From contig CAZILT010000068.1 in the NCBI GenBank assembly GCA_964540185.1, positions 1-25,055 on the forward strand: a stretch of DNA of 25,055 nucleotides, in the 5' to 3' direction. The position numbers and the translations under genes are program-made. Numbering within the stretch: the stretch's first letter is position 1; each line of letters opens with the position of its first letter. The notes below the pieces were generated by a model. That model worked only from the letters and a program-made list of their open reading frames with translations, ran no database searches and had not been told where the DNA came from. Below, piece by piece: positions 6,811 through 24,862 of the stretch. Source of the DNA: an uncultured Dehalococcoidales bacterium. GTDB lineage: Bacteria > Chloroflexota > Dehalococcoidia > GIF9 > AB-539-J10.

Positions 6811-7071
6811 TTATTCGTCTGTTATCCCTTGGCTGTGAAGATAATCAACGGCGTCTTGGACAGTCCACATTTTTTCAGCATCTTCGTCGGCTATTTCTAG
6901 CCTCTTTCCCGGGAGGCTGAATTCCTCCTCTATAGCTGTAATCAGTTCAACTAAGTCTAACGAGTCGGCGTTAAGGTCATCCGTAAAGGATGTTTCCGTG
7001 GTTATCTCTTTCTGTTCCACTTCTAATTGTTCCACGATTACTTCCCTCAGACGTTCAAAAACAGTTGCCAT
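6811..7071 (-). CDS. acpP: Acyl carrier protein
   Basis: [13 protein letters not shown] phosphopantetheine-Ser motif, acidic 86 aa, SD GGAGGT. Confidence 0.96.
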
Positions 7072-7085
7072 TTTACCTCCTTGAA

Positions 7086-7517
7086 TTAGAGTTTCCCCAT
7101 CTGTGAGTTTCTCACGCTATATTTGGTTACTATTGAACCTAACACTCCATTAACCAACTGCGATGAACAATCGCTACCAAAGGTCTTGGCTAACTCCACA
7201 GCCTCATTTATAGCTACCTTAAACGGAGTCTTATTATCAAATAAAATCTCAAAAATGGCAAGACGCAGGATATTTCTATCGATGGCAGCCATTTGCTCTA
7301 CAGGAAAAGCAGGTGCGAAACACTTAATGAGGTCATCAAGGTTAGGTTTATTTTTAAGCACTCCTTGTATAAGCTGCTCACTAAAGTTGAGCACTTCTTG
7401 TGGCACTGCCTTCTCAGTTGCTAGATGAGATAAGGCCTCTTCTCCACTATGTGTAGTGCAGTCAAGTTCGTAAAGTATCTGAAGGGCAATAGCCCTTGCC
7501 TTTCGTCTGGAGCCCAT
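7086..7517 (-). CDS. nusB: Transcription antitermination factor NusB
   Basis: [41 protein letters not shown]. Confidence 0.96.
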
Positions 7518-7519
7518 AG

Positions 7520-8467
7520 TTAGATGTTTTTATTTGAATTTTTCAATTGTGTAATATCTGCGATTTCTGAGATGTTGAAGGTCCTTACTTCTGAGTTGAT
7601 TCGCTTAATCAAGCCAGTGAGCACCTTCCCAGGGCCAATCTCGTAGAAGGAAGTGATGCCATTATGTATCATATATTCAACAGAGGGCTGCCACTGGATG
7701 CAATGACGAAGCTGTTTTACAAGCTCCTCCTTTATAGAGTCGACATCAGTCAGTGGTTGAGCGGTTACATTGGATATTATGGGGATGGTTGGTGGTTGGA
7801 ATGTGAAATCTGAAATAACCTTGCCGAAGGCATCTATAATCGGTTCCATCAAAGCGGAATGAAAAGCCCCACTTACCTCCAAGGGAACAAGGCGCCGGGC
7901 ACCTTTCATTCTGGCCAGTTTGCTAGTTTCGGCTAAAGCATCAGCAGCACCACTGATTACAATCTGTCCCGGGCAGTTAATGTTGGAGATGTTACATTTA
8001 TTATGACGGCATATATCCTCAATTCCCTCTGTATCAAGTCCTATTATAGCTAGCATGCCTCCTTGCTTTTCCTGCCCTGCTTTATACATTAATTTGCCCC
8101 TTTCACGGACTAAGTTTGCAGCGTCGCCTAAACTAAGCACTCCGGCAGCTACCAGAGCGGTGTATTCGCCCAAGCTGTGCCCAGCGACGACGGTAGGGGG
8201 GGGCAAATCCTTATTACCACCTTGCCCAGCTGCCCTCAGACAGGCAATGCTGGTTACCAGAATTGCCTGTTGGACATTATCTGTTCTTTTCAGTTCCTCT
8301 TCTGGTCCTTCAAAGCATAGCTGAGAGAGGGGGAAGCCCAGGGCGGCCTCAGCTTCATCGAAAGCTTCTCTGGCCGATGGATACCTATTACATAGGTCTA
8401 ACCCCATGCCAACTCCCTGGGATCCTTGCCCGGGGAAAACATAAGCTGCCTTAAGCGGGTGAGTCAT
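7520..8467 (-). CDS. fabD: Malonyl-CoA:ACP transacylase
   Basis: FPGQGSQ, catalytic GHSLGEY, VSGAFHS, EIGPGKVL. Confidence 0.96.
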   Translation of the reverse strand: MTHPLKAAYVFPGQGSQGVGMGLDLCNRYPSAREAFDEAEAALGFPLSQLCFEGPEEELKRTDNVQQAILVTSIACLRAAGQGGNKDLPPPTVVAGHSLGEYTALVAAGVLSLGDAANLVRERGKLMYKAGQEKQGGMLAIIGLDTEGIEDICRHNKCNISNINCPGQIVISGAADALAETSKLARMKGARRLVPLEVSGAFHSALMEPIIDAFGKVISDFTFQPPTIPIISNVTAQPLTDVDSIKEELVKQLRHCIQWQPSVEYMIHNGITSFYEIGPGKVLTGLIKRINSEVRTFNISEIADITQLKNSNKNI

Positions 8468-8477
8468 ATATTCCTAG

Positions 8478-8672
8478 CTATCCCTTTCTCTTAGGTGCTT
8501 TGACCTCAATCGCTTGCCTATCATTATAGCTACCGCAAGTAGGGCAAACATGGTGAGCCAACTTAGGGCTATGGCATTTAGGGCAGATATCCAAAGCAGG
8601 TAAGGCAAGCCTAAGATGACTACGCCTTTTCCCCTGGCGCGCTTTGGCATATTTTCTTTTAGGCAGAGCCAT
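8478..8672 (-). CDS. rpmF: 50S ribosomal protein L32 (Zn-binding C+ form)
   Basis: MALPKRK...RRSH, CPKC...HHVCPTCGSY, SD AAGGAGGT. Confidence 0.95.
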   Translation of the reverse strand: MALPKRKYAKARQGKRRSHLRLALPALDICPKCHSPKLAHHVCPTCGSYNDRQAIEVKAPKRKG

Positions 8673-9123
8673 ATGAACTTACCTCCTTGATTCCACCACA
8701 ATCAGGTTGACAAAGTGGTTTCATGGGCAAATTTAACAAGGTATACTGGCGGATCAGTTCTCCTAAGTCAAGCATATTATTGCTATTAATGCTGAAGTCA
8801 CCCGATACAGGGAACAAGGCTGACCCGCTGGGTATGTCAATTGCAGGAAGGAATTCCTCTTCGATGTGGAAACTAACGGGATAAAGAAAAGCATCAAGGC
8901 AGCGACTGCATGTAAGTTCTACTTCAACGGTTAGTTCACCTTGAACCAAAATCTCTTGACCACCGTGGGTTAGTGTTACCTTTCCCCAGATAGAGTTTTT
9001 AGCTGGCCCACTGAATATTTCGCCTACGCGATAGCTGCGACTACAGCCAACGGGGGCTTTCAATAGTCGAGTCATATCTATTAAACCTTTGAAAGGCTTT
9101 CCATTAAGTTCTTCAGCTGTCAT
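8659..9123 (-). CDS. yceD: YceD/DUF177 family protein
   Basis: CSRCL and PMKPLCQPDCGG motifs, directly upstream of rpmF. Start trimmed from 9246 to ATG 9123 (the longer ORF would overlap the divergent gene and promoter). Confidence 0.88.
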   Translation of the reverse strand: MTAEELNGKPFKGLIDMTRLLKAPVGCSRSYRVGEIFSGPAKNSIWGKVTLTHGGQEILVQGELTVEVELTCSRCLDAFLYPVSFHIEEEFLPAIDIPSGSALFPVSGDFSINSNNMLDLGELIRQYTLLNLPMKPLCQPDCGGIKEVSSYGSA

Positions 9124-9165
9124 GGCTAACCTAAAGTAACACCTAGAAGTGTAAGCGAAAGGTAA

Positions 9166-9194
9166 AGTATAATAGTTAGTCTGAGGGTTTTCAA
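9166..9194 (-). promoter_or_regulatory. Sigma70 promoter for yceD-rpmF-fabD-nusB-acpP
   Basis: TTGAAA (9194-9189), 17-nt spacer, TATACT (9171-9166). Overlaps a plus-strand TATAAT at 9168-9173. Confidence 0.6.
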
Positions 9195-9197
9195 GCA

Positions 9198-10373
9198 TTG
9201 GAGACAGAGGGGTTAAAAACAAGAGTAAGGGATAAGGTAGAAGCACAACATCGAGAGCTTGTCCAGTTAAGCCTTAAACTTCATGATAACCCAGAGTTAG
9301 GTTTCCAGGAGAAAAAGGCAGCGGCTTCGCTCATCGCTTACCTCAAAGGCAATGGATTCCGAGTAAAGAAATGCATTGCGGGCTTGCCTACAGCCTTCCA
9401 AGCTGTATATGGGCACGGTAGTCCGAGGATTGCCTTGCTGGCTGAGTATGATGCTTTACCTAAGATAGGGCATGGCTGTGGGCATAATATAATAGCTGCA
9501 TCAGCAGTGGGTGCCGGTATTGCTAGCAAGCTTGCCATTGATAGTTTGGGGGGTAGCATTATAGTTCTAGGCACGCCTGGAGAGGAGATTTTTGGTGGCA
9601 AGATAGACATGGTCAATGCCGGTATCTTTAATGAAATAGACGTGGCGATGATGGTGCATCCTGATACTCGGAATCTGGCAACCATGCAGGCATTTGCTTG
9701 CATTTCCTTAAATGTAGAATTCATTGGCAAGCCCGCTCATGCTGCTGCCCAACCAGATAGAGGCGTAAATGCTCTCGAGGCCCTAATTTTAGCTTTTAAC
9801 TCTATAAATTCGTTACGTCAGCATGTAAAAGGAGAGGCACGCATTCATGGTATAATCACTGATGGTGGTGACGCTCCTAATATAGTGCCGGCTCATAGTG
9901 CTGCTAGCTTCTTGATACGTGCCTTAGATACTGCTTACCTTGGTGAACTGAAGGAAAAAGTGTTGAATTGTTTCCAAGGAGCATCTTTAGCTAGTGGAGC
10001 CGAGCTAAAGTATAGCTGGGGAGAAAAGACTTATGCTTTTATGAAAAATAATGGCACTTTGGCCGGGTTATTCAGCCAAAATATGGAGTTGCTAGGACGC
10101 CATATGGAAGTTTTTGACCCTCGTTTTGGCTGTGGCAGCACAGATATGGGAAATGTAAGCCAGGTGGTGCCCAGTATACATCCTATGGTGGCTATTGCGC
10201 CTCCTGGGGTGGTGATACATTCACCACAGTTTGCATCTGCGGCTGCTTCTGAGGATAGCCATAAGGGGCTGTTAGATGCGGCTAAGGCGATGGCAATGAC
10301 TGTCGTTGATATTCTTGGTCAGCCTGAGATGCTAGGTAAGATTAGGCAGGAATTCCGGAGTGGCCATGATTAA
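9198..10373 (+). CDS. M20D family amidohydrolase (AbgB/ACY1L2-like)
   Basis: LHDNPELGFQE, AEYDAL, GHGCGHN, GTPGEE, GKPAHAA, GSTDMGNVSQ..PSIHP. TTG start. Confidence 0.92.
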   Translation: METEGLKTRVRDKVEAQHRELVQLSLKLHDNPELGFQEKKAAASLIAYLKGNGFRVKKCIAGLPTAFQAVYGHGSPRIALLAEYDALPKIGHGCGHNIIAASAVGAGIASKLAIDSLGGSIIVLGTPGEEIFGGKIDMVNAGIFNEIDVAMMVHPDTRNLATMQAFACISLNVEFIGKPAHAAAQPDRGVNALEALILAFNSINSLRQHVKGEARIHGIITDGGDAPNIVPAHSAASFLIRALDTAYLGELKEKVLNCFQGASLASGAELKYSWGEKTYAFMKNNGTLAGLFSQNMELLGRHMEVFDPRFGCGSTDMGNVSQVVPSIHPMVAIAPPGVVIHSPQFASAAASEDSHKGLLDAAKAMAMTVVDILGQPEMLGKIRQEFRSGHD

Positions 10374-11349
10374 AGTGGGTATCCCGCGGGCTTTGCTTTA
10401 CTACCAGTATTATCCTATGTGGAAAACTTTTTTTGAAAGTTTAGGTGCAGAGGTAGTAGTATCGCCGCAAACTAATAAGGCCATACTAAATTCAGGCGTC
10501 ACCCGGGCAGTTGCTGATACCTGCTTGCCAGTAAAGCTTTTTCTGGGGCATGTTGTCTCTTTGATAGACAAATGTGACTATATATTTGCCCCGGCGGTTA
10601 TCAATCTGGGCAAGAAGACTTATAACTGCTCTAAAATTATCGGTTTACCTAACATGGTTAGAGCATTAATCCCTGAATGCCCTGTAGTTCTTGCCCCACA
10701 GATAGATGTGGGAAAGTGGCGCTATCATTTATATCACAATATTTATGAGTTGGGGCACCGTTTTACCTCCAGTCCGTTTAAGATCCAAAAAGCGGTTGAG
10801 GAGGCCTGGAAAAGCAACCTGACTTACCGAAATAAGATGTCCCAAGAAGGACTTACCTGCCTTGAGGCTATCAGTGAAGTGTGCCAAGAGGGATCGCGGT
10901 CAGCTTCTGGTTTTGATTCATCTCCACTGCTGACTATCGCTGTTATTGGGCATCCTTATGTCATCTATGATGATTATCTTAACCATCGCTTAATTTTGCA
11001 ATTGCAATCAATGGGGACTAAAATTCTCGTTCCCGAAATGGTGCCTGAGGAGGAGCTTGATGCCGCCGCAATAAGGCTGGTGGGTGCTCCTCATTGGGCA
11101 TTTGAGACTGACATTATCGGCGCTGGTGAATATTACTTGGAAGCGAAAGTCGATGGTCTCATTAATCTCTCTGTCTTTGGCTGTGGTCCTGATTCAATGA
11201 TGGTGAGCTTTGTAAAGCATCGAGCCCGAGAGCTTGGGATTCCCTTTTTACACCTTAGTCTGGATGAGCATGCCAGTGCAGGGGGAGTGCTTACTCGCTT
11301 AGAAGCTTTCCTTGACATGATTAAACGGAGGGAGAGGATATGCGTGTAG
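10366..11349 (+). CDS. DUF2229-type Fe-S subunit (2-hydroxyacyl-CoA dehydratase/PlsA reductase-domain-like)
   Basis: KVGIPRALLYY, DTCLPVK, NCSKIIGLP, IGHPYVIYD, FGCGPDS, LDEH...G..TRLEAF. Three conserved Cys. ATG 10366 follows GGAG. Confidence 0.8.
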   Translation: MIKVGIPRALLYYQYYPMWKTFFESLGAEVVVSPQTNKAILNSGVTRAVADTCLPVKLFLGHVVSLIDKCDYIFAPAVINLGKKTYNCSKIIGLPNMVRALIPECPVVLAPQIDVGKWRYHLYHNIYELGHRFTSSPFKIQKAVEEAWKSNLTYRNKMSQEGLTCLEAISEVCQEGSRSASGFDSSPLLTIAVIGHPYVIYDDYLNHRLILQLQSMGTKILVPEMVPEEELDAAAIRLVGAPHWAFETDIIGAGEYYLEAKVDGLINLSVFGCGPDSMMVSFVKHRARELGIPFLHLSLDEHASAGGVLTRLEAFLDMIKRRERICV

Positions 11350-12434
11350 GTATACCTCATTTTGGCAACGTCTATGTAGCTATAAAAAGCATGGTTTATA
11401 GACTGGGCGCCATTGATGGTGAGCTTGTGATCCCACCACCAATGACTCAGAGAACATTAGAGCTGGGAATCAAGTACTCACCGACGGAGGCTTGCTTACC
11501 TTATAAGCTTACTCTAGGCAGTTTAATCGAGGCCTGTGAGCTGGGGGCAGATACCCTGGCCCAGGCTAGAGGGACTGGCATCTGCCGTTTGGGCTACTAT
11601 GCCAAGGGGCAGGAACAAATGCTTTGTGACCTGGGTTATAATGCTCACTTCATCACTATTGATGTGTCTCACCATAAGATTGCTAGCATTCTGCAGCTTA
11701 TAAGGGACATGACCAATAATGCCCCGTGGCATGAAATTATTTCAGCGTTTTTCTTTGGTATAGGTAAGCTAGCTGCCTTAGATAGAGTGGAAAGGGTAGT
11801 CTGGAAGATAAGGGCAGTGGAATTGGAGAAGGGGGTGGCTAATCGAATCTACCGGGAAGCTGTTAAGGCCATTGATGGCGCGACTAGTAGCAAGGAAGTA
11901 AGAAGGATAACTAAAGAATACACTGACAGGCTAAATAAAGTTCCCAGGGATCCTGAGGCTGATCCGCTTAAGGTGGGCATAGTAGGTGAAATTTATGTTG
12001 TTATAGAGCCCTTTGCCAATATGGATATAGAGGTGGAGTTAGGCAAATTGGGGGTAGAGGTCGAGCGAACCATGACTATTTCTCGATGGATCAAATATAG
12101 CCTTTTCCTTAACTACTTAGGTGTAGATGAGTGGAAGGAGGTTCATAAGCTAGCTAAGCCTTACCTTGACCACGATGTTGGGGGTGATGGCTGGGAGTCG
12201 GTGGGTGAGAAGGTGCTCTACTCACAGAGGGGGTATGATGGAGTAATCCATCTAGCCCCTTTTACCTGTATGCCTGAAATAGTAGCTCAGAATATTATGC
12301 CATCGACCAGGGAAGATATACCGGTGCTTGCTGTCACTTGCGATGAACAAATGGCTAAGCAGGGGATGTTGACCAGGCTTGAGGCCTTTGTGGACCTGCT
12401 TGGCTTTAGAAGGAGGAGGCGGGATGGGAGATAA
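11340..12434 (+). CDS. HGD-D-like Fe-S subunit (PlsR-like / CoA protein activase partner)
   Basis: EACLPYK, GICRLGYY, GIVGEIYV, PFTCMPE, DEQ...G..TRLEAF. Three conserved Cys. Paralogous to the preceding gene. Confidence 0.8.
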   Translation: MRVGIPHFGNVYVAIKSMVYRLGAIDGELVIPPPMTQRTLELGIKYSPTEACLPYKLTLGSLIEACELGADTLAQARGTGICRLGYYAKGQEQMLCDLGYNAHFITIDVSHHKIASILQLIRDMTNNAPWHEIISAFFFGIGKLAALDRVERVVWKIRAVELEKGVANRIYREAVKAIDGATSSKEVRRITKEYTDRLNKVPRDPEADPLKVGIVGEIYVVIEPFANMDIEVELGKLGVEVERTMTISRWIKYSLFLNYLGVDEWKEVHKLAKPYLDHDVGGDGWESVGEKVLYSQRGYDGVIHLAPFTCMPEIVAQNIMPSTREDIPVLAVTCDEQMAKQGMLTRLEAFVDLLGFRRRRRDGR

Positions 12435-12633
12435 ATTTGCAACGCTGGATAAGTTTGTCACAAGTAAGCAAATGATAGTGTTCTTTATTCTCATTACAAT
12501 TATTTCGGTTTTATTTTATCCCATCTTGAGTTTAAAGCGGAGAAGAGCACTGGAATTGCAGGAGAGTATCAAAACCTTCAATTGTGGTAGGCTTAAAAGC
12601 TTTGGCGGAACATCTCTTAAGAGAGTAGACTAG
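12424..12633 (+). CDS. Putative 69-aa single-pass membrane protein
   Basis: AGGAGG SD 7 nt before ATG 12424. MGDKFATLDKFVTSKQMIVFFILITIISVLFYPILSLKRRRALE... has one hydrophobic stretch followed by KRRR. Fills the gap between its neighbours exactly. Confidence 0.45.
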   Translation: MGDKFATLDKFVTSKQMIVFFILITIISVLFYPILSLKRRRALELQESIKTFNCGRLKSFGGTSLKRVD

Positions 12634-12641
12634 AGGGAGTT

Positions 12642-13607
12642 ATGAAAACTTATCTTGGTATTGATGTTGGTTCGGTTACCACCAAATTAGCTTTGCTTGA
12701 CGAAAGCAATGAGATTCTAGCATCTATCTATTTGCGAACTCGGGGTAATCCGGTTGATATGATAAAGGAAGGGTTGGAGGAGATAAGAAAGCAGATGCCC
12801 CCCGAGGCTGAAATTTGTGGCGTGGCTACCACAGGAAGTGGTAGAGCGCTGGCTGGCGTTATGGTTGGTGCCGACTTGGTGAAAAATGAGATCACTGCTC
12901 ATGCGGTCGCTGCTATGTACTATGTATCTGATGTGCAAACTGTGTTTGAAATTGGAGGACAGGATAGCAAAATTATCATAATTCGTGATGGCGTAGTTGT
13001 TGATTTTGGCATGAACTCAGTATGTGCTGCTGGCACTGGTAGTTTTCTTGAGCATCAAGCTGAGCGATTGAACATAAGGGTTGAGGATTTCGGGGGCCAT
13101 GCCTTGAGGAGCAGAAATCCAGCGCGCATCGCCGGGCGCTGTACTGTTTTTGCTGAATCAGACATGATTCATAAACAGCAGATGGGCTATCCCATTGATG
13201 ACATCATTTATGGATTGTGTCAATCAATGGTGCGTAACTATCTCAATAATGTTGCTTTAGGCAAAGAAATCCTGCCTAGAATGGTATTCCAAGGTGGTGT
13301 TGCTTTCAATAAAGGGATAGTCAGGGCATTCAATGAAACCTTCCACACGGAAGTTTATATTCCTCCTCACAAGGAACTCATGGGTGCCATTGGAGCTGCT
13401 ATGTTGGTGTATGAAGAAGTGAAGAATAATGGTCACATGACAGGTTTTAAAGGATTTAGTGTCAGCCAAACAGAATTCCAGATGTCCTCTTTTATATGTA
13501 AAGCTTGCCCTAACCTGTGCGAGATATCCCAAATTTCTGTCGATGGCAGGGTTCTGGCAAGATGGGGGGGACGTTGTGACATGTGGGAAAGGGTAGAAGG
13601 TAGATGA
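12642..13607 (+). CDS. ATP-dependent CoA-substrate enzyme activase (BcrAD/BadFG/HgdC ASKHA ATPase) with C-terminal Cys motif
   Basis: GIDVGSVTTK, TTGSGR, IGGQDSK, VCAAGTGSFLE, RCTVFAES, GAIGAA, plus C-terminal CKACPNLC...GGRC. Confidence 0.88.
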   Translation: MKTYLGIDVGSVTTKLALLDESNEILASIYLRTRGNPVDMIKEGLEEIRKQMPPEAEICGVATTGSGRALAGVMVGADLVKNEITAHAVAAMYYVSDVQTVFEIGGQDSKIIIIRDGVVVDFGMNSVCAAGTGSFLEHQAERLNIRVEDFGGHALRSRNPARIAGRCTVFAESDMIHKQQMGYPIDDIIYGLCQSMVRNYLNNVALGKEILPRMVFQGGVAFNKGIVRAFNETFHTEVYIPPHKELMGAIGAAMLVYEEVKNNGHMTGFKGFSVSQTEFQMSSFICKACPNLCEISQISVDGRVLARWGGRCDMWERVEGR

Positions 13608-14563
13608 GCAAGACTTATCAGGTAATTGTCATTGGTGGTGGACCTGCTGGTCTTACTGCTGGCTTGTATTGCGCTCGCTCAGGGCTTGATGTCTTGCTTA
13701 TTGAGAGAGGAGTGATGGGTGGGCAGATAACCTATGCTGAGAGGCTGGAGAATTATCCCGGTTTTCCCCAAGGAGTTTCCGGCATCGAGCTGGGGCAACG
13801 CATGCACCAGCAAGCCACTAGCTGGGGGTTGCAAACATTACTCGCTGAGGTCACCAGTCTGATCCCTCACATTCCCCGACAGATAAAGGGAGGTAGGGGA
13901 TGGGATTCTCCTTCGTATCACCTGGTCAACACTAGTGAAGGGGATTTCATAGCTGATTCGGTGATTATCGCCACTGGTTCGCAGTTCCGTAAGTTAGAGG
14001 TGCCTGGAGAAGATGAGCTTGTGGGTAAAGGGGTTTCCTACTGTGCTACTTGTGATGGTCCTTTGTTCCGTGATAAGGCAGTAGCCGTAATAGGGGGTGG
14101 AGATTCTGCTATCACCGAAGCTCTTTATCTAACTAAGTTCGCTTCCTCAGTTAAGATCATCCATCGTCGTAGCCAATTACGAGCTAGCAGGATACTGCGT
14201 GAAAGGGCCAGGATGGAACCCAAAATAGACTTTATCTGGAATTCTGTGGTGACTAAGGTAGAAGGTGATGGAGTGGTCAATCAAGTTAGATTGGAAGACA
14301 CAAAAAATGATACAATATCAGTATTGTCGGTAGCTGGTGTTTTTGTTGCTATCGGGTTAGAACCCAATACTGGCTATTTGCGGGGGATTGTGCCTCTAGA
14401 TGAACAAGGTTACATAATCACCAATGGGGTGATGGAAACGGGAGTGTCAGGAATATTGGCTACAGGCGATGTTCGCCATGACTCAGCCAGGCAGGCGATA
14501 ACTGCTGCTGGCGATGGCGCTACTGCTGCTGTATCAGTGGAGAGGTTTCTCAGTTTACGATGA
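13604..14563 (+). CDS. trxB: Thioredoxin-disulfide reductase
   Basis: [37 protein letters not shown]...QAITAAGDG. Carries an extra loop of about 12-13 aa. Confidence 0.96.
13864..13894 (+). repeat. Copy 1 of a dispersed pyrimidine/purine palindromic repeat, in frame inside trxB
   Basis: CCCTCACATTCCCCGACAGATAAAGGGAGGT matches 18760-18730 (minus strand) at 26/31 nt without gaps. Confidence 0.6.
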
Positions 14564-15012
14564 AGGTCATCTTATTGAAGGATATTCCCGGGAAAGGAGA
14601 GGCTGGAGAGATAAAGGAGGTGAGCCAAGGCTATGCCAGGAATTTCCTTTTGCCTCAAGGCTTGGCCTCAGTAGCAACGCCGACGATTATAAAGCAGGTC
14701 GGGCTGGAGATTCAGAAGGAAAGAGGTCAAAAAACTGTTGACCAAACCAAGTTGGCTGAACTAGCTGGACAGATTGAGGGAAGCAGAATTTATTTTCATA
14801 CCCGTATAGGCGCAGGAGATCGTCTATTTGGCTCTATTACCGCTGCTGACATAGCTAAGGAGCTAAGTCGAGTCACAGGTTCTGTTGTTGATAAGAGGAA
14901 GATAGATATAGACAAGCCCTTGCGCCAGGGGGGTAATCACGAAATAATTGTCAAATTAGCTAAAGGGTTAGAGCCACAAATCACAGTGGTTATCGAGCCA
15001 GAGAGGGCTTAG
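14560..15012 (+). CDS. rplI: 50S ribosomal protein L9
   Basis: [43 protein letters not shown]. Confidence 0.97.
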
Positions 15013-15013
15013 C

Positions 15014-16393
15014 ATGGCACAAGAAAAATTACCCCCCCACGATATTGAGGCGGAGGAGGCTGTAATTGGCTCCTTGCTTATTGATCCTGATGCTATTTTG
15101 AAAGTTGCTATCTTTCTTAAGCCTGAGGACTTTTTTGAGGAGGCTAATCAGCTTATTTACCGAGCTTGTTTCTCCCTTTATCAGCGCAATGAAGCCATAA
15201 ATCAAATCACCGTAGCTCATGAATTGATGCGCCAGAATAAGCTGGAGCAAATTGGCGGTGCTGCCTATTTAAGCCATCTGATATCTATTGTGCCCACGTC
15301 TCTTCATGTTGAACATTATGCGCAGATAGTGTCTAACATGGCAGTAATGCGGCGGTTAATCGCTGCTGCGGGACAGATTGCTGCTATTGGCTATGATGCT
15401 GGACCAGATGTCGAGGCTAGCCTCAATAAAGCTGAAGAGCTCCTTTTCCAATTACGCATGAAGCAGGGAGCCAGGGATTTTGTTCTAGTTCGTGATGTTC
15501 TAGGCCAATACTTTGAAGAGGCTGGACAGCCTGCTGTGCCTCTGGAAGGGAAGATGCCTCACACTCTAACTGGTTTTCCTGGGCTGGATGCCCTCCTGGG
15601 TGGCTTACAGAAATCAGACTTGATTGTTTTAGCTGCCAGGCCTAGCATGGGTAAAACCAGCTTGGCTCTAAATATTGCCAGAAACGCTGCTGTCAACCAA
15701 GGAGCTTGTGTTGCTATATTCAGTTTGGAGATGTCCCGGGAATCAGTAGTTCAGCGTCTTCTGTCTAGCGAGGCAGAGGTAGATTCTAAGCATGTTCGTT
15801 TTGGACATTTTGAAGGAAACGATGAGGTGAGGGTCATGGAGGCCAGTGGAATCTTATCTGAAACGCCAATCTACATCGATGATTCACCTCAGATTCGAGC
15901 TATAGATATAAGAAGCAAAGCGCGGCGCCTTCACTTTGAGCACAATATTGACTTAATAATCGTTGATTACATACAGCTAATAGAGGGTGATGGTAGGAAT
16001 GAAAATCGGGTTCAGGAGCTCAGTAAAATAACTCGTTCATTAAAAATGCTGGCTAGAGAGTTGGATGTACCAGTGCTGGCCGTATCTCAACTTAGCCGGG
16101 CTGTGGAATGGCGAGCCTCCCATATGCCTCAGCTTGCTGACTTGCGCGAAAGCGGCACCATCGAACAGGATGCTGATATTGTTGTTTTTATCTACCGAGA
16201 TGACATGTATTATAAGGAGGAAGACTGGTATAAACTGCATGATATGGAGAAGGAGCCTTATCCGCGTGGCATCGCTGATATTATCGTATCTAAGCACCGT
16301 AACGGCCCTTTAGGGCAAGTTAAGTTGCGTTTCTTGAATAGAGTGGTTAAATTTGATAGCTTGGAGGGGGCCGAGTCAATTTCAGCTATTTGA
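15014..16393 (+). CDS. dnaB: Replicative DNA helicase DnaB
   Basis: PPHDIEAEEAVIG, AARPSMGKT Walker A, FSLEM, DYIQL, SQLSR, LRESGTIEQDAD, KHRNGP. Confidence 0.97.
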   Translation: MAQEKLPPHDIEAEEAVIGSLLIDPDAILKVAIFLKPEDFFEEANQLIYRACFSLYQRNEAINQITVAHELMRQNKLEQIGGAAYLSHLISIVPTSLHVEHYAQIVSNMAVMRRLIAAAGQIAAIGYDAGPDVEASLNKAEELLFQLRMKQGARDFVLVRDVLGQYFEEAGQPAVPLEGKMPHTLTGFPGLDALLGGLQKSDLIVLAARPSMGKTSLALNIARNAAVNQGACVAIFSLEMSRESVVQRLLSSEAEVDSKHVRFGHFEGNDEVRVMEASGILSETPIYIDDSPQIRAIDIRSKARRLHFEHNIDLIIVDYIQLIEGDGRNENRVQELSKITRSLKMLARELDVPVLAVSQLSRAVEWRASHMPQLADLRESGTIEQDADIVVFIYRDDMYYKEEDWYKLHDMEKEPYPRGIADIIVSKHRNGPLGQVKLRFLNRVVKFDSLEGAESISAI

Positions 16394-17106
16394 AAAACGG
16401 AAAGATGTTAAATAAAAAATTTACTGGTTTCCCAGCAGGAGTAACATTTATCTCCTTGCCTGACCTCTTCCTTACTCAGGTGATGCCTCAGATTCAAGAT
16501 GTGGCTGAGCTTAAAGTAACAATTTATATCTTTTATTTGCTCCATCGTAAGCGAGGGTATCCCTGTTTTGTTACATATAGGGAGTTACTGTCTGATAGGG
16601 TATTGATGGCTGGGGTGGGAGAGGGAGCACTTCGTCTTGCTTTAAGCTCAGCGGTAAACCGCGGCACTATTTTACATCTAAACTTAAATATAGATGGTAA
16701 CTGGGAGGATGTTTACTTTGCCAATATGGAAAGTGATAGGAAGGCTATTGATAACATCAAGCGTGGGAAGCTTCCTATTGATGAAATGAAACCCGGCGAG
16801 GAAAGGATACGACGTCCAGTACAATTACCTAACATTTTCGCCCTCTATGAGCAAAATATAGGGATAATAACGCCAATGATTGCTGAAGAGCTTAAAGAGG
16901 CGGAAAGATTATATCCCCCACAGTGGATTGATGAGGCTTTTGAGGAAGCAGTCCTGATGAATAAACGCAGTTGGAGATATATTGCTCGTATTCTTGAACG
17001 CTGGGCTAGCGAAGGTAAGGATAGTGGAAAGCATAGACAAGGTATTAAAAAGAATGACCCCGACAAATACATCAGGGGCAAGTACGGACATCTGGTCAAA
17101 AGATAA
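16390..17106 (+). CDS. DnaD domain protein
   Basis: C-terminal NIFALYEQNIG.ITPMIAEEL...WIDEAFEEAV..NKRSWRYIARILERW DnaD domain. TTGA overlap with the dnaB stop; alternative ATG at 16405. Confidence 0.85.
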   Translation: MKNGKMLNKKFTGFPAGVTFISLPDLFLTQVMPQIQDVAELKVTIYIFYLLHRKRGYPCFVTYRELLSDRVLMAGVGEGALRLALSSAVNRGTILHLNLNIDGNWEDVYFANMESDRKAIDNIKRGKLPIDEMKPGEERIRRPVQLPNIFALYEQNIGIITPMIAEELKEAERLYPPQWIDEAFEEAVLMNKRSWRYIARILERWASEGKDSGKHRQGIKKNDPDKYIRGKYGHLVKR

Positions 17107-18448
17107 ACCTGCTGGCCGTTCTGAGCGTAGCGAAGAATCTCATGGTGCCGAGAGCAAGTCCTACGCTGGGGAAGGAACCTGTCCTATATGTAAAGGAGCT
17201 GGCTTTGTGCATCCGCTACTGGCTTCAGGACAGCCTGATTTTAGTCGGGTGGTGCCTTGCCAGTGTGAAAGAGAAAAACGACAGGGGAGAAAGTTACAAT
17301 ACCTTAAGAAATACAGCAATCTTGGTTCCCTGTCACGGCTTACATTTGGCAATTTATCGCCGAAGGGAAACAGAGACGACGCTGTTTCACAGGAGCGCTT
17401 TAGTTGTGCTTACCAGGTGGCCAAAACCTTTGCGGATAATCCCCAAGGGTGGCTTGTCCTTTCCGGTCCTAGCGGCTGTGGCAAAACTCACTTAGCTTGT
17501 GCTATTGCTAATCACTGTTTAAGTGCGGGACAGCCGGCCTTTTATATCGGAGTTGCCGATCTTCTAGATCACCTCCGTTCTGCTTTTAGCCCCACAAGTA
17601 ATATAACCTACGATGAGTTATTTGAGCATGTAAAGAATACGCCCCTACTGGTGCTTGATGACCTAACTATGGAAGGTGCTACATCCTGGGCAAGGGAAAA
17701 ATTGGAGCAACTTCTCAATCATCGTTTCAATGCTAGGTTAGCCACTGTGGTTACCACAGATGTGCCATTGGAAAAGTTTGGTGAGCGTTTGCACGGGCAT
17801 TTCAGAAATGATGAATTTTGCCAGGTATGTGCAGTGGGGCAAAAGTCGTCCTTAGAACGATTGGGCACATTGCCGCCGGGACTATTGCGGAATATGACCT
17901 TTGATAAGTTTGACTATAAGCGATTGAACCTATCTTTGGAGCAGCGTCAAAATCTACAACAAGCTTTTCATCTAGCAGCGGATTTTGCTCATAATCCGGA
18001 AGGTTGGCTAATATTTAGCGGTGTTAACGGTTGTGGCAAAACCCATCTAGCAGCAGCTATTACTAATTATCGGTTAGCACAGGGCAAGCCGACTTTCTTT
18101 GTTGTTGTTCCTGAATTGCTTGACCATTTACGCTCTACCTTCAGCCCGGAGAGTAGGGTGCCATATGATGAATTTTTTGAGGAGATTAAACAAAGCCCGC
18201 TGCTGATACTCGATGATTTTGGTGAACAATCAGCTACCTCATGGGCTCAAGAGAAGCTATATCAATTGATTAACCATCGCTATAATACTACATTACCGAT
18301 GGTAGTTACCACATGCCTTTCGCTGGATGAGATTGAAACCCGAATCAGTTCACGAATGGTAGATCCGAGCCTAAGCCTGGTTTTTAATATCATCGCTCCT
18401 GATTATCGTGGTGATGTAAAGACTAGTCGGCGGGCTAAGCGCTACTGA
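17024..18448 (+). CDS. DnaC/DnaI/IstB-family helicase-loader-like ATPase with two tandem AAA+ domains
   Basis: N-terminal CPICKG...PCQC; two Walker A (GPSGCGKTHLA, GVNGCGKTHLA); two Walker B (LLVLDDL, LLILDDF). Start tentatively GTG 17024 after GAAGGTAAGG; the exact start is uncertain. Confidence 0.85.
   Translation: MESIDKVLKRMTPTNTSGASTDIWSKDKPAGRSERSEESHGAESKSYAGEGTCPICKGAGFVHPLLASGQPDFSRVVPCQCEREKRQGRKLQYLKKYSNLGSLSRLTFGNLSPKGNRDDAVSQERFSCAYQVAKTFADNPQGWLVLSGPSGCGKTHLACAIANHCLSAGQPAFYIGVADLLDHLRSAFSPTSNITYDELFEHVKNTPLLVLDDLTMEGATSWAREKLEQLLNHRFNARLATVVTTDVPLEKFGERLHGHFRNDEFCQVCAVGQKSSLERLGTLPPGLLRNMTFDKFDYKRLNLSLEQRQNLQQAFHLAADFAHNPEGWLIFSGVNGCGKTHLAAAITNYRLAQGKPTFFVVVPELLDHLRSTFSPESRVPYDEFFEEIKQSPLLILDDFGEQSATSWAQEKLYQLINHRYNTTLPMVVTTCLSLDEIETRISSRMVDPSLSLVFNIIAPDYRGDVKTSRRAKRY
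17118..17141 (+). repeat. Half-copy of a GTCATT(C/G)...AGCGAAG(C)AATCTC-type palindromic repeat inside the loader gene
   Basis: GTTCTGAGCGTAGCGAAGAATCTC, read in frame as RSERSEES. Shares AGCG-N-AGCGAAG-(C)-AATCTC with 19636-19609. Confidence 0.6.
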
Positions 18449-23225: not shown

Positions 23226-24194
23226 TCATCCTGAGGCTCTTAACGAGGTTAACTTACCAAAATCTGCCAGCGCTTCAGTTGCCGGCAAGTTTTCAAAAAG
23301 GACTTGATAAATAAGATTGATAATAGGAGTTTCCAAGTTCAACTTCTGGATTATTTGATGAACTGCCATAGCCGTATTAACCCCTTCAGCGACCTGTGAC
23401 ATAGAAGCAGTTATTTCTTTCAGTGATCGCCCTTTAGCTAACTCATAACCAACATAATGATTTCGGCTCAAAGTGCTAGCGCAAGTGGCTATTAAGTCAC
23501 CCAAGCCAGATAAACCGGAAAAGGTACTAGCCTTAGCTCCCAGGGCCACCCCCAGGGAAATAGCCTCAGCCCAACTCCAGGTGACAAAGGCAGCCTTAGC
23601 ATTGTCACCCAAGTTCAAGCCATCAATCATTCCCGCACCCAAAGCTACAATATTTTTCAGGGCTCCTCCCAATTCTACGCCGATGACATCATCAGTGGTA
23701 AACAGAAGAAATTCGGGCGAACTCATCAAATCTCGCACTCTTTCAGCTACAGTTACGTCCTGTGCAGCCACCATCGAAGCAGCAGGCAGGCCAAGAGCAA
23801 CTTCCCTGGCTAAATTGGGGCCGGAGAGAACACAGATGCGCTGTTCTAAAGCCGGTGCAATTTCCTCTGCCATTACCTGAGACATTCTCTTGCCACTATC
23901 CATCTCTAACCCTTTGGCAGCACTCACCAACAACATTAAGTTGGTTAAGTAGTCTTTAGCTAGAGCGACATTTTGTCGCAATTTCTGCGAGGGAACCACC
24001 CAGATTACAAGGTCGGATCCTTTCAGCGCTTCCTCGATATGACTGGTAGAAGAATAGCTATATAATTTCCTGTTCAGCCCCTCAGCTTCTACTTGGCTGC
24101 GCGCCCACAACTTTACCTCCACCCCCTTGCTGCTTAGCAAGGCAGCTAAAGTATTGCCCCAAGTGGTATTCCCTATGATGGTAGCTTTAGGCAT
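23226..24194 (-). CDS. gpsA: NAD(P)H-dependent glycerol-3-phosphate dehydrogenase
   Basis: KGLE, LSGPNLA, GVELGGALKN, GLSGLGDL..TC...SRN, AEGV. Divergent GNTTWG nucleotide-binding loop. Confidence 0.95.
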   Translation of the reverse strand: MPKATIIGNTTWGNTLAALLSSKGVEVKLWARSQVEAEGLNRKLYSYSSTSHIEEALKGSDLVIWVVPSQKLRQNVALAKDYLTNLMLLVSAAKGLEMDSGKRMSQVMAEEIAPALEQRICVLSGPNLAREVALGLPAASMVAAQDVTVAERVRDLMSSPEFLLFTTDDVIGVELGGALKNIVALGAGMIDGLNLGDNAKAAFVTWSWAEAISLGVALGAKASTFSGLSGLGDLIATCASTLSRNHYVGYELAKGRSLKEITASMSQVAEGVNTAMAVHQIIQKLNLETPIINLIYQVLFENLPATEALADFGKLTSLRASG

Positions 24195-24220: not shown

Positions 24221-24862
24221 TCACCATAGCTGGCGTTCTGTGCCCAGTTGTAATCGCTTTACATTGTCACGATGCTGGTAGACAAGAAAGGCTATGGCTG
24301 CTAAGCCATAAGCTAGATAAATTGGGGGAGAACCATAACTAATGGTCAAAGGTACCAACAAACACCAGGCAGCTATAGCTCCCAGAATGGAGCCTTTGGA
24401 CATTTGCCGGCTACGCAGCGCCGATATAGCTATAACTTCAGTTCCAAATATAGCAACCGGTGGAGAAATAATAAATAATGTACCAAAGTAGGCAGCTACC
24501 CCGCGACCTCCTTTAAACCCGGCAAATACAGGCCAGTTATGTCCTGCCACGGCTGCCAAGCCAGCCATAACTTGAGCTATATGCAAGTACTGGAAGGATA
24601 CGCCTCCAATGGTCAATATACCGCTATCTACAATCACTTTAGCCAGCAGGACTGCTCCCGCAGCTTTAACCCCATCAAGGAGTAGGGTTAAAACGCCAAT
24701 CCTGGTCCCTACGGCTCGCATTACATTAGTGGCGCCAGTTTTGCCACTGCCATATTTTCTGACATCAATGCCACCCTTGAGCTTACCCATGAGCAGGCCG
24801 AAGGGAATAGAGCCCAAAAGGTAACCAGCAATCACCACAGCAATAAACCTGGCAACTATCAT
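24221..24862 (-). CDS. plsY: Glycerol-3-phosphate acyltransferase PlsY
   Basis: [27 protein letters not shown]...[16 protein letters not shown]. Confidence 0.95.

Follow-up and report, generated by a model that had tools for sequence, protein, structure and literature searches.

Two kinds of described enzymes stand closest to the genes considered here. The anaerobic plasmalogen synthase of Clostridium perfringens, PlsA/PlsR (CPE1194/1195), consists of two tandem activase domains and a reductase domain in one protein (Act1-Act2-Red1) plus a second reductase protein, Red2 (PMC12838417). Listeria, Enterococcus and Lactococcus have single-gene pls forms (work of Jackson et al. 2021, summarized in PMC12838417 and PMC9702350), and active orthologues have been reported for Listeria (PMC9702350). 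The glycerol ester reductase (Ger) of Thermotoga maritima (Tmari_0479) is a single protein with the architecture BBDHDDH, and a Ger has also been described from D. alkenivorans (PMC13159169). Proteins of the PlsA type make plasmalogens (PMC12838417, PMC9702350) or alkyl ethers (PMC13159169), and all confirmed producers of alkyl ethers retain the BBD core, in which two activase domains are fused to a reductase domain (PMC13159169). The field itself acknowledges that sequence cannot separate an alkyl from a vinyl ether product (PMC11868695). Here we describe a related gene module on a 25,055-nucleotide contig, referred to below as the window (C68; CAZILT010000068.1 of assembly GCA_964540185.1), from the 0.99-Mb, 90% complete genome of an uncultured bacterium of the class Dehalococcoidia.

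The module spans positions 10360-13607 and consists of four close-set plus-strand genes: RedA, RedB, a 69-aa open reading frame (ORF) and an activase. The locus is best explained as encoding an iron-sulfur reductase that is driven by ATP, is complete with its three subunits and belongs to the DUF2229 branch, as do PlsA/PlsR and Ger. We judge the chances to be slightly better than even that this reductase is a PlsA/Ger-type enzyme in split form, with a homodimeric activase, and that it converts an acyl ester on a membrane glycerolipid into an ether by reduction. An earlier note on this DNA had proposed such an enzyme from three of the genes, and ORF analysis and Pfam matches find all three present and intact where it had placed them. 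The parts of the module are as follows.

10360 to 11349, plus strand: RedA, a DUF2229 subunit with an HGD-D-like C-terminal end, equivalent to Red1, the C-terminal domain of PlsA (Pfam, phmmer and BLAST matches, structure model)
11340 to 12434, plus strand: RedB, a paralog of RedA and counterpart of Red2/PlsR (Pfam, alignments, structure model)
12424 to 12633, plus strand: short ORF (69 aa) whose product has a single hydrophobic helix (sequence; copies in genomes G054 and G250)
12642 to 13607, plus strand: BcrAD/BadFG-type activase of 321 aa, Act2 type (Pfam, TIGR00241, scores against Act2)
13497 to 13577, plus strand: four-cysteine tail of the activase, C286-x2-C289-x3-C293...C312 (alignment; common to Act2 of PlsA-type proteins)

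RedA (329 aa) carries a full-length DUF2229 domain (Pfam, E 3e-57), and its C-terminal end matches the last 60 positions of HGD-D (profile positions 281-342; Pfam, E 1.6e-9). Its true start is likely the ATG at 10366, the choice made in the earlier note, which fits the family consensus MxxVGIPR better than the GTG at 10360. RedB (364 aa) gives a weak N-terminal match to DUF2229 only (Pfam, E 5.8e-10) and no Pfam match to HGD-D, so its former description as an HGD-D-type subunit holds at the level of fold but not by sequence. The two subunits are about 23% identical to each other and their genes overlap by 10 nt. Fusion proteins of RedA and RedB, about 700 aa long, are common among relatives, which suggests that the two act together. 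Apart from the module, no DUF2229 gene was found in the window's genome, which is 90% complete.

Named PlsA-type proteins for comparison were drawn from chromosomes filed as plasmids, and came from Listeria monocytogenes (one protein of 1475 aa), Fusobacterium animalis (a two-gene form of 975 and 404 aa), Collinsella, Haliovirga, Paraclostridium and Monoglobus pectinilyticus. RedA is collinear with residues 670-982 of the Listeria protein and with residues 662-974 of F. animalis PlsA (phmmer, BLAST), and it shares 25-28% identity with Red1 of these two over 98% of its length. The best match of RedB is the Red2/PlsR part of the Listeria, Fusobacterium, Collinsella and Haliovirga proteins. Split and fused forms cannot be told apart by raw identity, because the fused protein of Dehalococcoidia shares just 26% identity with the Listeria protein and thus is no closer to it than RedA is. 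Cysteines C55, C90 and C275 of RedA are invariant in 150 sequences, and C52, C82 and C310 of RedB are present in 98% of 130 sequences, the named PlsA-type proteins included; both three-cysteine sets are common to split and fused forms. The window proteins contain more cysteines than the three per subunit counted earlier, yet exactly three in each are invariant.

Several further observations concern these subunits. A suspected selenocysteine in RedA of genus g2, a sister of the window's genus g1, was dismissed, since the apparent internal TGA is an ordinary stop at the position of C328 in the window protein. Genome G039 (L052:8957-11138) has RedB twice in tandem, and these copies, which share 55% and 52% identity with RedB of the window, are placed between RedA and the activase gene. 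Also, an additional stand-alone RedB-like gene (40% identity) lies 5 kb from the module in locus L042.

The activase matches BcrAD_BadFG (Pfam, E 4e-51) and, with 198 bits where 125 are required, TIGR00241. Its residues 5-261 align with HgdC and HadI (E 1e-37), and in this alignment C128 and C167 fall on the cysteines that bridge the cluster in those proteins, a role that is established for HgdC. Past residue 261 or so the protein continues into a 60-residue tail with the four cysteines listed above. This tail is absent from HgdC, HadI and MbdQ, the alignments to HgdC and HadI ending where it begins. In comparisons with fused proteins, the activase does far better with Act2 than with Act1 (180 and 75 bits in the case of Listeria); its alignment to Act2 runs through the tail, and all four cysteines are kept in the Listeria, Fusobacterium, Collinsella and Haliovirga proteins and in the fused forms of Dehalococcoidia. 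The earlier note had described a single activase with a C-terminal cysteine motif and had stated that such a tail follows the activase domains of PlsA-type proteins and is missing from HgdC and HadI. The description was accurate, and the statement proves correct for Act2. No second PF01869 BcrAD/BadFG activase was found in the 90% complete genome.

These comparisons support the view that the module is the equivalent of enzymes of the PlsA/PlsR type, but fully split and with a single activase. RedA would correspond to Red1, RedB to Red2/PlsR and the activase to Act2, and the resemblance extends to the collinear paralogous pair of reductase modules, the three invariant cluster-type cysteines in each, the CxxCxxxC...C tail and the fold of the family of benzoyl-CoA reductases (BCR) and 2-hydroxyacyl-CoA dehydratases (HAD). 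The two systems differ in that every part is encoded here by a gene of its own, with one free-standing activase, whereas PlsA carries two tandem activase domains fused to Red1. Ger, which was compared by its published description only, shares the Pfam parts PF01869, PF09989 and PF06050, but is a single BBDHDDH protein, whereas the window module is split. Ger is active only under anoxia, which is in keeping with the genome of an anaerobe. The fused Act1-Act2-Red1-Red2 proteins of Dehalococcoidia (about 1375-1450 aa; for example P0237 and the protein of G166, L069:8090-12217) come from the same bacterial family, but are fused, have two activase domains and are about 28-30% identical to RedA. The module of M. 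pectinilyticus, a cultured gut bacterium (L060:4001-7218), is also a three-gene split with the activase tail, with 33% identity for RedA and 32% for RedB. Literature searches found no paper on Monoglobus together with plasmalogens and none on "acyl-CoA dehydratase activase-related protein".

A quite different assignment would make the locus a classical 2-hydroxyacyl-CoA dehydratase, an enzyme of the benzoyl-CoA reductase type or a double-cubane reductase. The structure models of RedA (predicted local distance difference test, pLDDT, 90.7) and RedB (pLDDT 88.8) match the double-cubane cluster protein (DCCP), HadBC and BzdNO/MbdON with template modeling (TM) scores of 0.5-0.6, and the likeness of the activase to HadI and HgdC points the same way. 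HadBC-HadI, HgdAB-HgdC and DCCP with its reductase DCCP-R likewise combine a homodimeric activase with a cluster-bearing catalytic pair (fold TM about 0.55), but they lack the DUF2229-specific regions and the activase tail, and sequence-level membership fails. Searches of solved structures by sequence gave marginal matches, with an E value of 0.004 at best. HGD-D matches only the final 60 residues of RedA and nothing in RedB, whereas 2-hydroxyacyl-CoA dehydratases have it at full length in both subunits together with partner genes. No CoA-transferase or 2-hydroxyacid dehydrogenase gene was found in the window, and no second activase-type subunit in the window's genome. The double-cubane model NF040772 scores 19.6 bits against a cut-off of 350, so the likeness to DCCP is one of fold only. 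Models for benzoyl-CoA reductases give 79-111 bits, far short of their cut-offs (313-578), and the single activase does not fit the BcrA/BcrD pair plus BcrB/BcrC of class I enzymes. An assignment to any of these classical enzymes thus seems very improbable.

A mechanism can be proposed from the better-known relatives, from which we infer oligomeric state, cofactors, substrate and product alike. The single activase would pair up as a homodimer, with C128 and C167 holding one [4Fe-4S] cluster between the two copies, as the alignment with HgdC suggests. A low-potential donor would reduce this activase, which by hydrolyzing ATP would inject electrons into a RedA/RedB heterodimer. By analogy with HAD and BCR enzymes, each Red subunit might hold a cluster on its three invariant cysteines, leaving one iron open for the substrate carbonyl. 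The likeliest substrate would be a membrane glycerolipid, whose sn-1 acyl ester would undergo reduction to an ether of the alk-1-enyl or alkyl kind.

Evidence that bears on this substrate comes in part from the distribution of the split and fused forms. In what follows, form A denotes modules that are split or have RedA and RedB fused, and form B denotes the fused proteins of about 1400 aa. Among the 101 genomes (20 genera) of the window's family, f1, form A is present in 38 (34 intact and four partial) and form B in 61. Both forms occur together in only eight, where about 23 would be expected under independence, and neither was found in ten, nine of which are less than 90% complete. At least one form is present in 39 of the 40 high-quality genomes and in every genus; ten genera have form A only, six have form B only, and four are mixed.

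Gene order within the family adds to this picture. In G166 (genus g3), a fused gene for a protein of 1375 aa, 74% identical to the fused-clade member P0237, sits in exactly the slot that the split module occupies in the window, with the acpP-nusB-fabD-yceD genes divergent from it on one side and trxB-rplI-dnaB-dnaD-dnaC following on the other. G246 has two fused copies elsewhere in its genome, and its slot (L076:9847-10274) retains only remnants between an intact M20 gene and trxB, namely two fragments of RedA (about 60% identity) and, from the activase, its final 31 codons (84% identity). In its congener G275 the slot holds an intact module, and a fused copy lies at a distance of 78 kb. Within this family, the two forms therefore mostly replace each other, once in the same slot. 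Near-universal presence of one form or the other, replacement in place and decay of one alongside the other together make the pattern expected of interchangeable enzymes.

A second line of evidence comes from the genes next to related modules. Across 20 related loci of Dehalococcoidia, the conserved core consists of RedA-RedB-Act, which is complete in 14. The gene plsX directly follows the activase in seven of these 14, in seven different GTDB families, and this module-linked plsX (TIGR00182, 325 bits against a cut-off of 243) is the sole plsX in all five genomes checked. Three of the plsX-linked loci have trxB one or two genes further on, so the junction of activase and trxB in the window looks like the same arrangement minus plsX. 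With plsX adjoining the activase in seven families, and with split and fused forms replacing each other, once in the same slot, a lipid acyl ester as the putative substrate is better supported than the argument of the earlier note allowed.

The window's own genome has three plsX copies elsewhere, 50-66% identical to each other, on contigs C154, C129 and C64 (L054:1221-2276, L056:1288-2319 and L055:3-869). One of these paralogs clusters with two MaoC-type dehydratases, a second acyl carrier protein and a short-chain dehydrogenase/reductase, another adjoins a DegV fatty-acid-binding protein, and the third is cut by the contig end. The module-linked plsX could not be paired with any one of the three, as it is 38-47% identical to all of them.

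The main competitor to lipid ester reduction by a split PlsA/Ger-type enzyme is that the same iron-sulfur machinery acts on a substrate other than a lipid, the split clade being a functionally distinct sister family of PlsA/Ger. Much of what weighs against the preferred interpretation would favor this one, beginning with the family tree. The tree holds 77 Red1/RedA segments rooted on eight Red2/RedB paralogs (85 rows), Ger not being among them. All double-activase fused proteins, including the named ones, form one clade (Shimodaira-Hasegawa approximate likelihood ratio test, SH-aLRT, 99), whereas the RedA of the window falls in another, made up of 39 activase-less forms that are split or have RedA and RedB fused (support 91). 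Two more activase-less lineages were recovered, one of the Moorellaceae/Armatimonadota type and one represented by Monoglobus, and the branching order among the four lineages is not resolved by the tree. The Red2 outgroup divides in the same manner as Red1/RedA. Because its clade lies outside the fused clade, the window's module is a sister variant rather than a recently split PlsA. Placement of the subunits thus gave a mixed result, with clear matches to Red1, Red2 and Act2 of PlsA-type proteins, but a position outside the clade of double-activase fused forms.

Other observations weigh on the same side. The fused tandem-activase BBD core is replaced here by one separate activase gene, and the module does not place inside the clade of experimentally supported enzymes in this tree, which was built without Ger. 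Because these two features of membership fail, we file the module as a new variant, not as a member of the PlsA/PlsR-Ger group. Among 201 genomes sampled from the class, 123 have no match to either form, form A occurring in 29, form B in about 55 and both in at least nine. Both forms are intact in seven of the 101 family genomes and in at least nine of the 29 class genomes that hold form A, which implies that the two are not strictly redundant and that their overlap is incomplete. Since the genomes are related and not independent, the counts above overstate the support and are descriptive rather than a statistical test. Moreover, neither the more distant activase-less relatives, whose gene neighborhoods are variable, nor the Monoglobus module have lipid genes next to them, and the solved relatives HAD, BCR and DCCP act on soluble substrates.

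Several results argue against a substrate other than a lipid. The replacement of one form by the other within the family, once in the same slot, and the decay of the split module in a genome that holds fused copies would be difficult to reconcile with such a role, as would the linkage, in seven families, of the sole plsX to the module. It is specifically with PlsA-type proteins that the module has the Act2-type tail and both Red subunits in common. Furthermore, the neighboring M20 amidohydrolase, which might have hinted at an acyl-amino-acid substrate, proved to be independent of the module. Overall, we regard a non-lipid substrate as possible, but clearly less probable than reduction of a glycerolipid acyl ester.

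The linkage to plsX might also be read in another way. PlsX makes acyl-phosphate, and its gene lies directly downstream of the activase in seven families, so the module might be lipid-linked and yet differ from PlsA/Ger in its chemistry or substrate, acting on acyl-phosphate, acyl-ACP, lysophosphatidic acid or an sn-2 ester. A different lipid substrate would account for the coexistence with the fused enzyme, as in G275 and other genomes with both forms intact, and sn-2 ether bonds of unexplained origin are reported for T. maritima (PMC8788747). The sequence holds no pointer to a different substrate, however, and the distribution within the family favors overlap with the fused enzyme over a separate role. 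This alternative therefore strikes us as unlikely. There is likewise an outside chance that split and fused forms are both ether-lipid synthases that differ in the position they act on (sn-1 versus sn-2) or in their product (a saturated form), and such a difference would explain why some genomes keep both.

The remaining features of the locus are neighbors of the module, which are listed here.

9198 to 10373, plus strand: M20 amidohydrolase, overlapping the start of RedA (a neighbor by gene order only, outside the system)
13604 to 14563, plus strand: trxB, thioredoxin reductase with a CATC motif (TIGR01292, 361 bits against a cut-off of 343)
6811 to 9246, minus strand: yceD-rpmF-fabD-nusB-acpP cluster, divergent from the module (profile matches)

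Plus-strand genes form one packed run from 9198 to 18448, with overlaps of 4-14 nt, in the order M20 amidohydrolase, RedA, RedB, 69-aa ORF, activase, trxB, rplI, dnaB, dnaD and a dnaC-like gene. The start of trxB overlaps the stop of the activase by 4 nt, and by gene order trxB is a conserved downstream neighbor, found near the module also in L034, L046, L048, L052, L081 and L087. The M20 gene lies near the module in seven of the 20 related loci. It was rejected as a functional partner, being present in G115 without a split module, on another contig in G132, and not found in G166.

The last gene of the run, a helicase-loader ORF of 488 aa (16982-18448), contains two tandem IstB/DnaC-type ATPase modules (about residues 150-270 and 303-479). 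Several relatives (L035, L068, L069, L076 and L081) retain the doubled ORF with 60-70% identity, and in genus g2 (L034, L087) the match spans only about 270 of its 488 residues.

The lipid genes that the earlier note had cited as context (fabD, 7520-8467; acpP, 6811-7071; gpsA, 23226-24194; plsY, 24221-24862) are all real. With rpmF also present at 8478-8672, the divergent genes make up the classical yceD-rpmF-(plsX)-fab cluster, from which plsX is missing. The argument from gpsA and plsY carries little weight, since these genes lie 10 kb off on the opposite strand, with replication and pantothenate genes in between. DNA datasets that contain at least half of the stretch's words come from two studies and are metagenomes of aquatic and freshwater-sediment origin; among RNA datasets, none was listed with the stretch.

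The 69-aa ORF was absent from the earlier note and was found on re-reading of the locus. It overlaps the stop of RedB by 11 nt, is preceded by AGGAGG, and belongs to no Pfam family. Copies with 65-68% identity occupy the same position in G054 and G250 (L034:10044-10253 and L087:7965-8159 are the coordinates of copies), and the C-terminal half is basic and conserved. A complex prediction of its product with RedA and RedB scored 0.60, and a control with RedB replaced scored 0.46, values that weigh neither way on binding. The protein may be a membrane tether. It was ruled out as a general feature of the module, since it is confined to genera g1 and g2 and absent from ten further related loci inspected.

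Other arrangements around related modules were also noted. In genus g89, whose genomes are 0.8-1.0 Mb, RedA-RedB occurs without an adjoining activase (L036:86-5600, L037:3745-8738), in L036 as a single fused gene for 706 aa, and has as its flanking genes a full-length HypF carbamoyltransferase and a membrane protein of the MauE/DoxX kind, which in L037 carries thioredoxin domains. A radical S-adenosylmethionine (SAM)/SPASM gene for about 500 aa lies directly upstream of RedA in four loci (L042:8988-10493, L045:1011-2474, L046:6426-7991 and L047:6482-8038). Its product has a conserved, soluble N-terminal extension of about 130 aa, reaches the cut-off of no NCBIfam model and may modify lipid tails; the gene was not found in the window's genome. 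At L053:8936-11241, a B12-binding radical SAM gene and a class I methyltransferase gene stand directly upstream of RedA, and the best matches of this radical SAM protein, HpnJ-like and "lipid biosynthesis B12/rSAM", are both below cut-off.

New here are a rooted tree, the identification of the activase as one of the Act2 type, the sole-copy status of the linked plsX, the independence of M20, and the evidence for replacement and decay within one family. Surveys for ether lipids search for long Ger/PlsA homologues, with thresholds of E <= 1e-50 and >= 30% query coverage (PMC13159169, PMC11868695). The RedA of 329 aa scores E 1e-18 to 1e-42 against fused forms and so fails this published filter, and organisms that have only the split form would go uncounted.

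Dehalococcoidia are among the most abundant bacteria of anoxic sediments and euxinic waters, and to our knowledge their lipids are almost uncharted. If the proposed function is true, the module would offer a minimal three-protein system for work on mechanism and structure that is easier to handle than a 1400-residue fusion. If split and fused forms do differ in position or product, the family would have been missed so far as a source of the dialkyl and monoalkyl glycerol ethers that occur in anoxic sediments, and the radical SAM/SPASM gene of the four loci named above would be a candidate tail-modifying partner. Should the split enzyme do the same job as the fused one, the list of candidate sources for sedimentary non-isoprenoid ether lipids would change.

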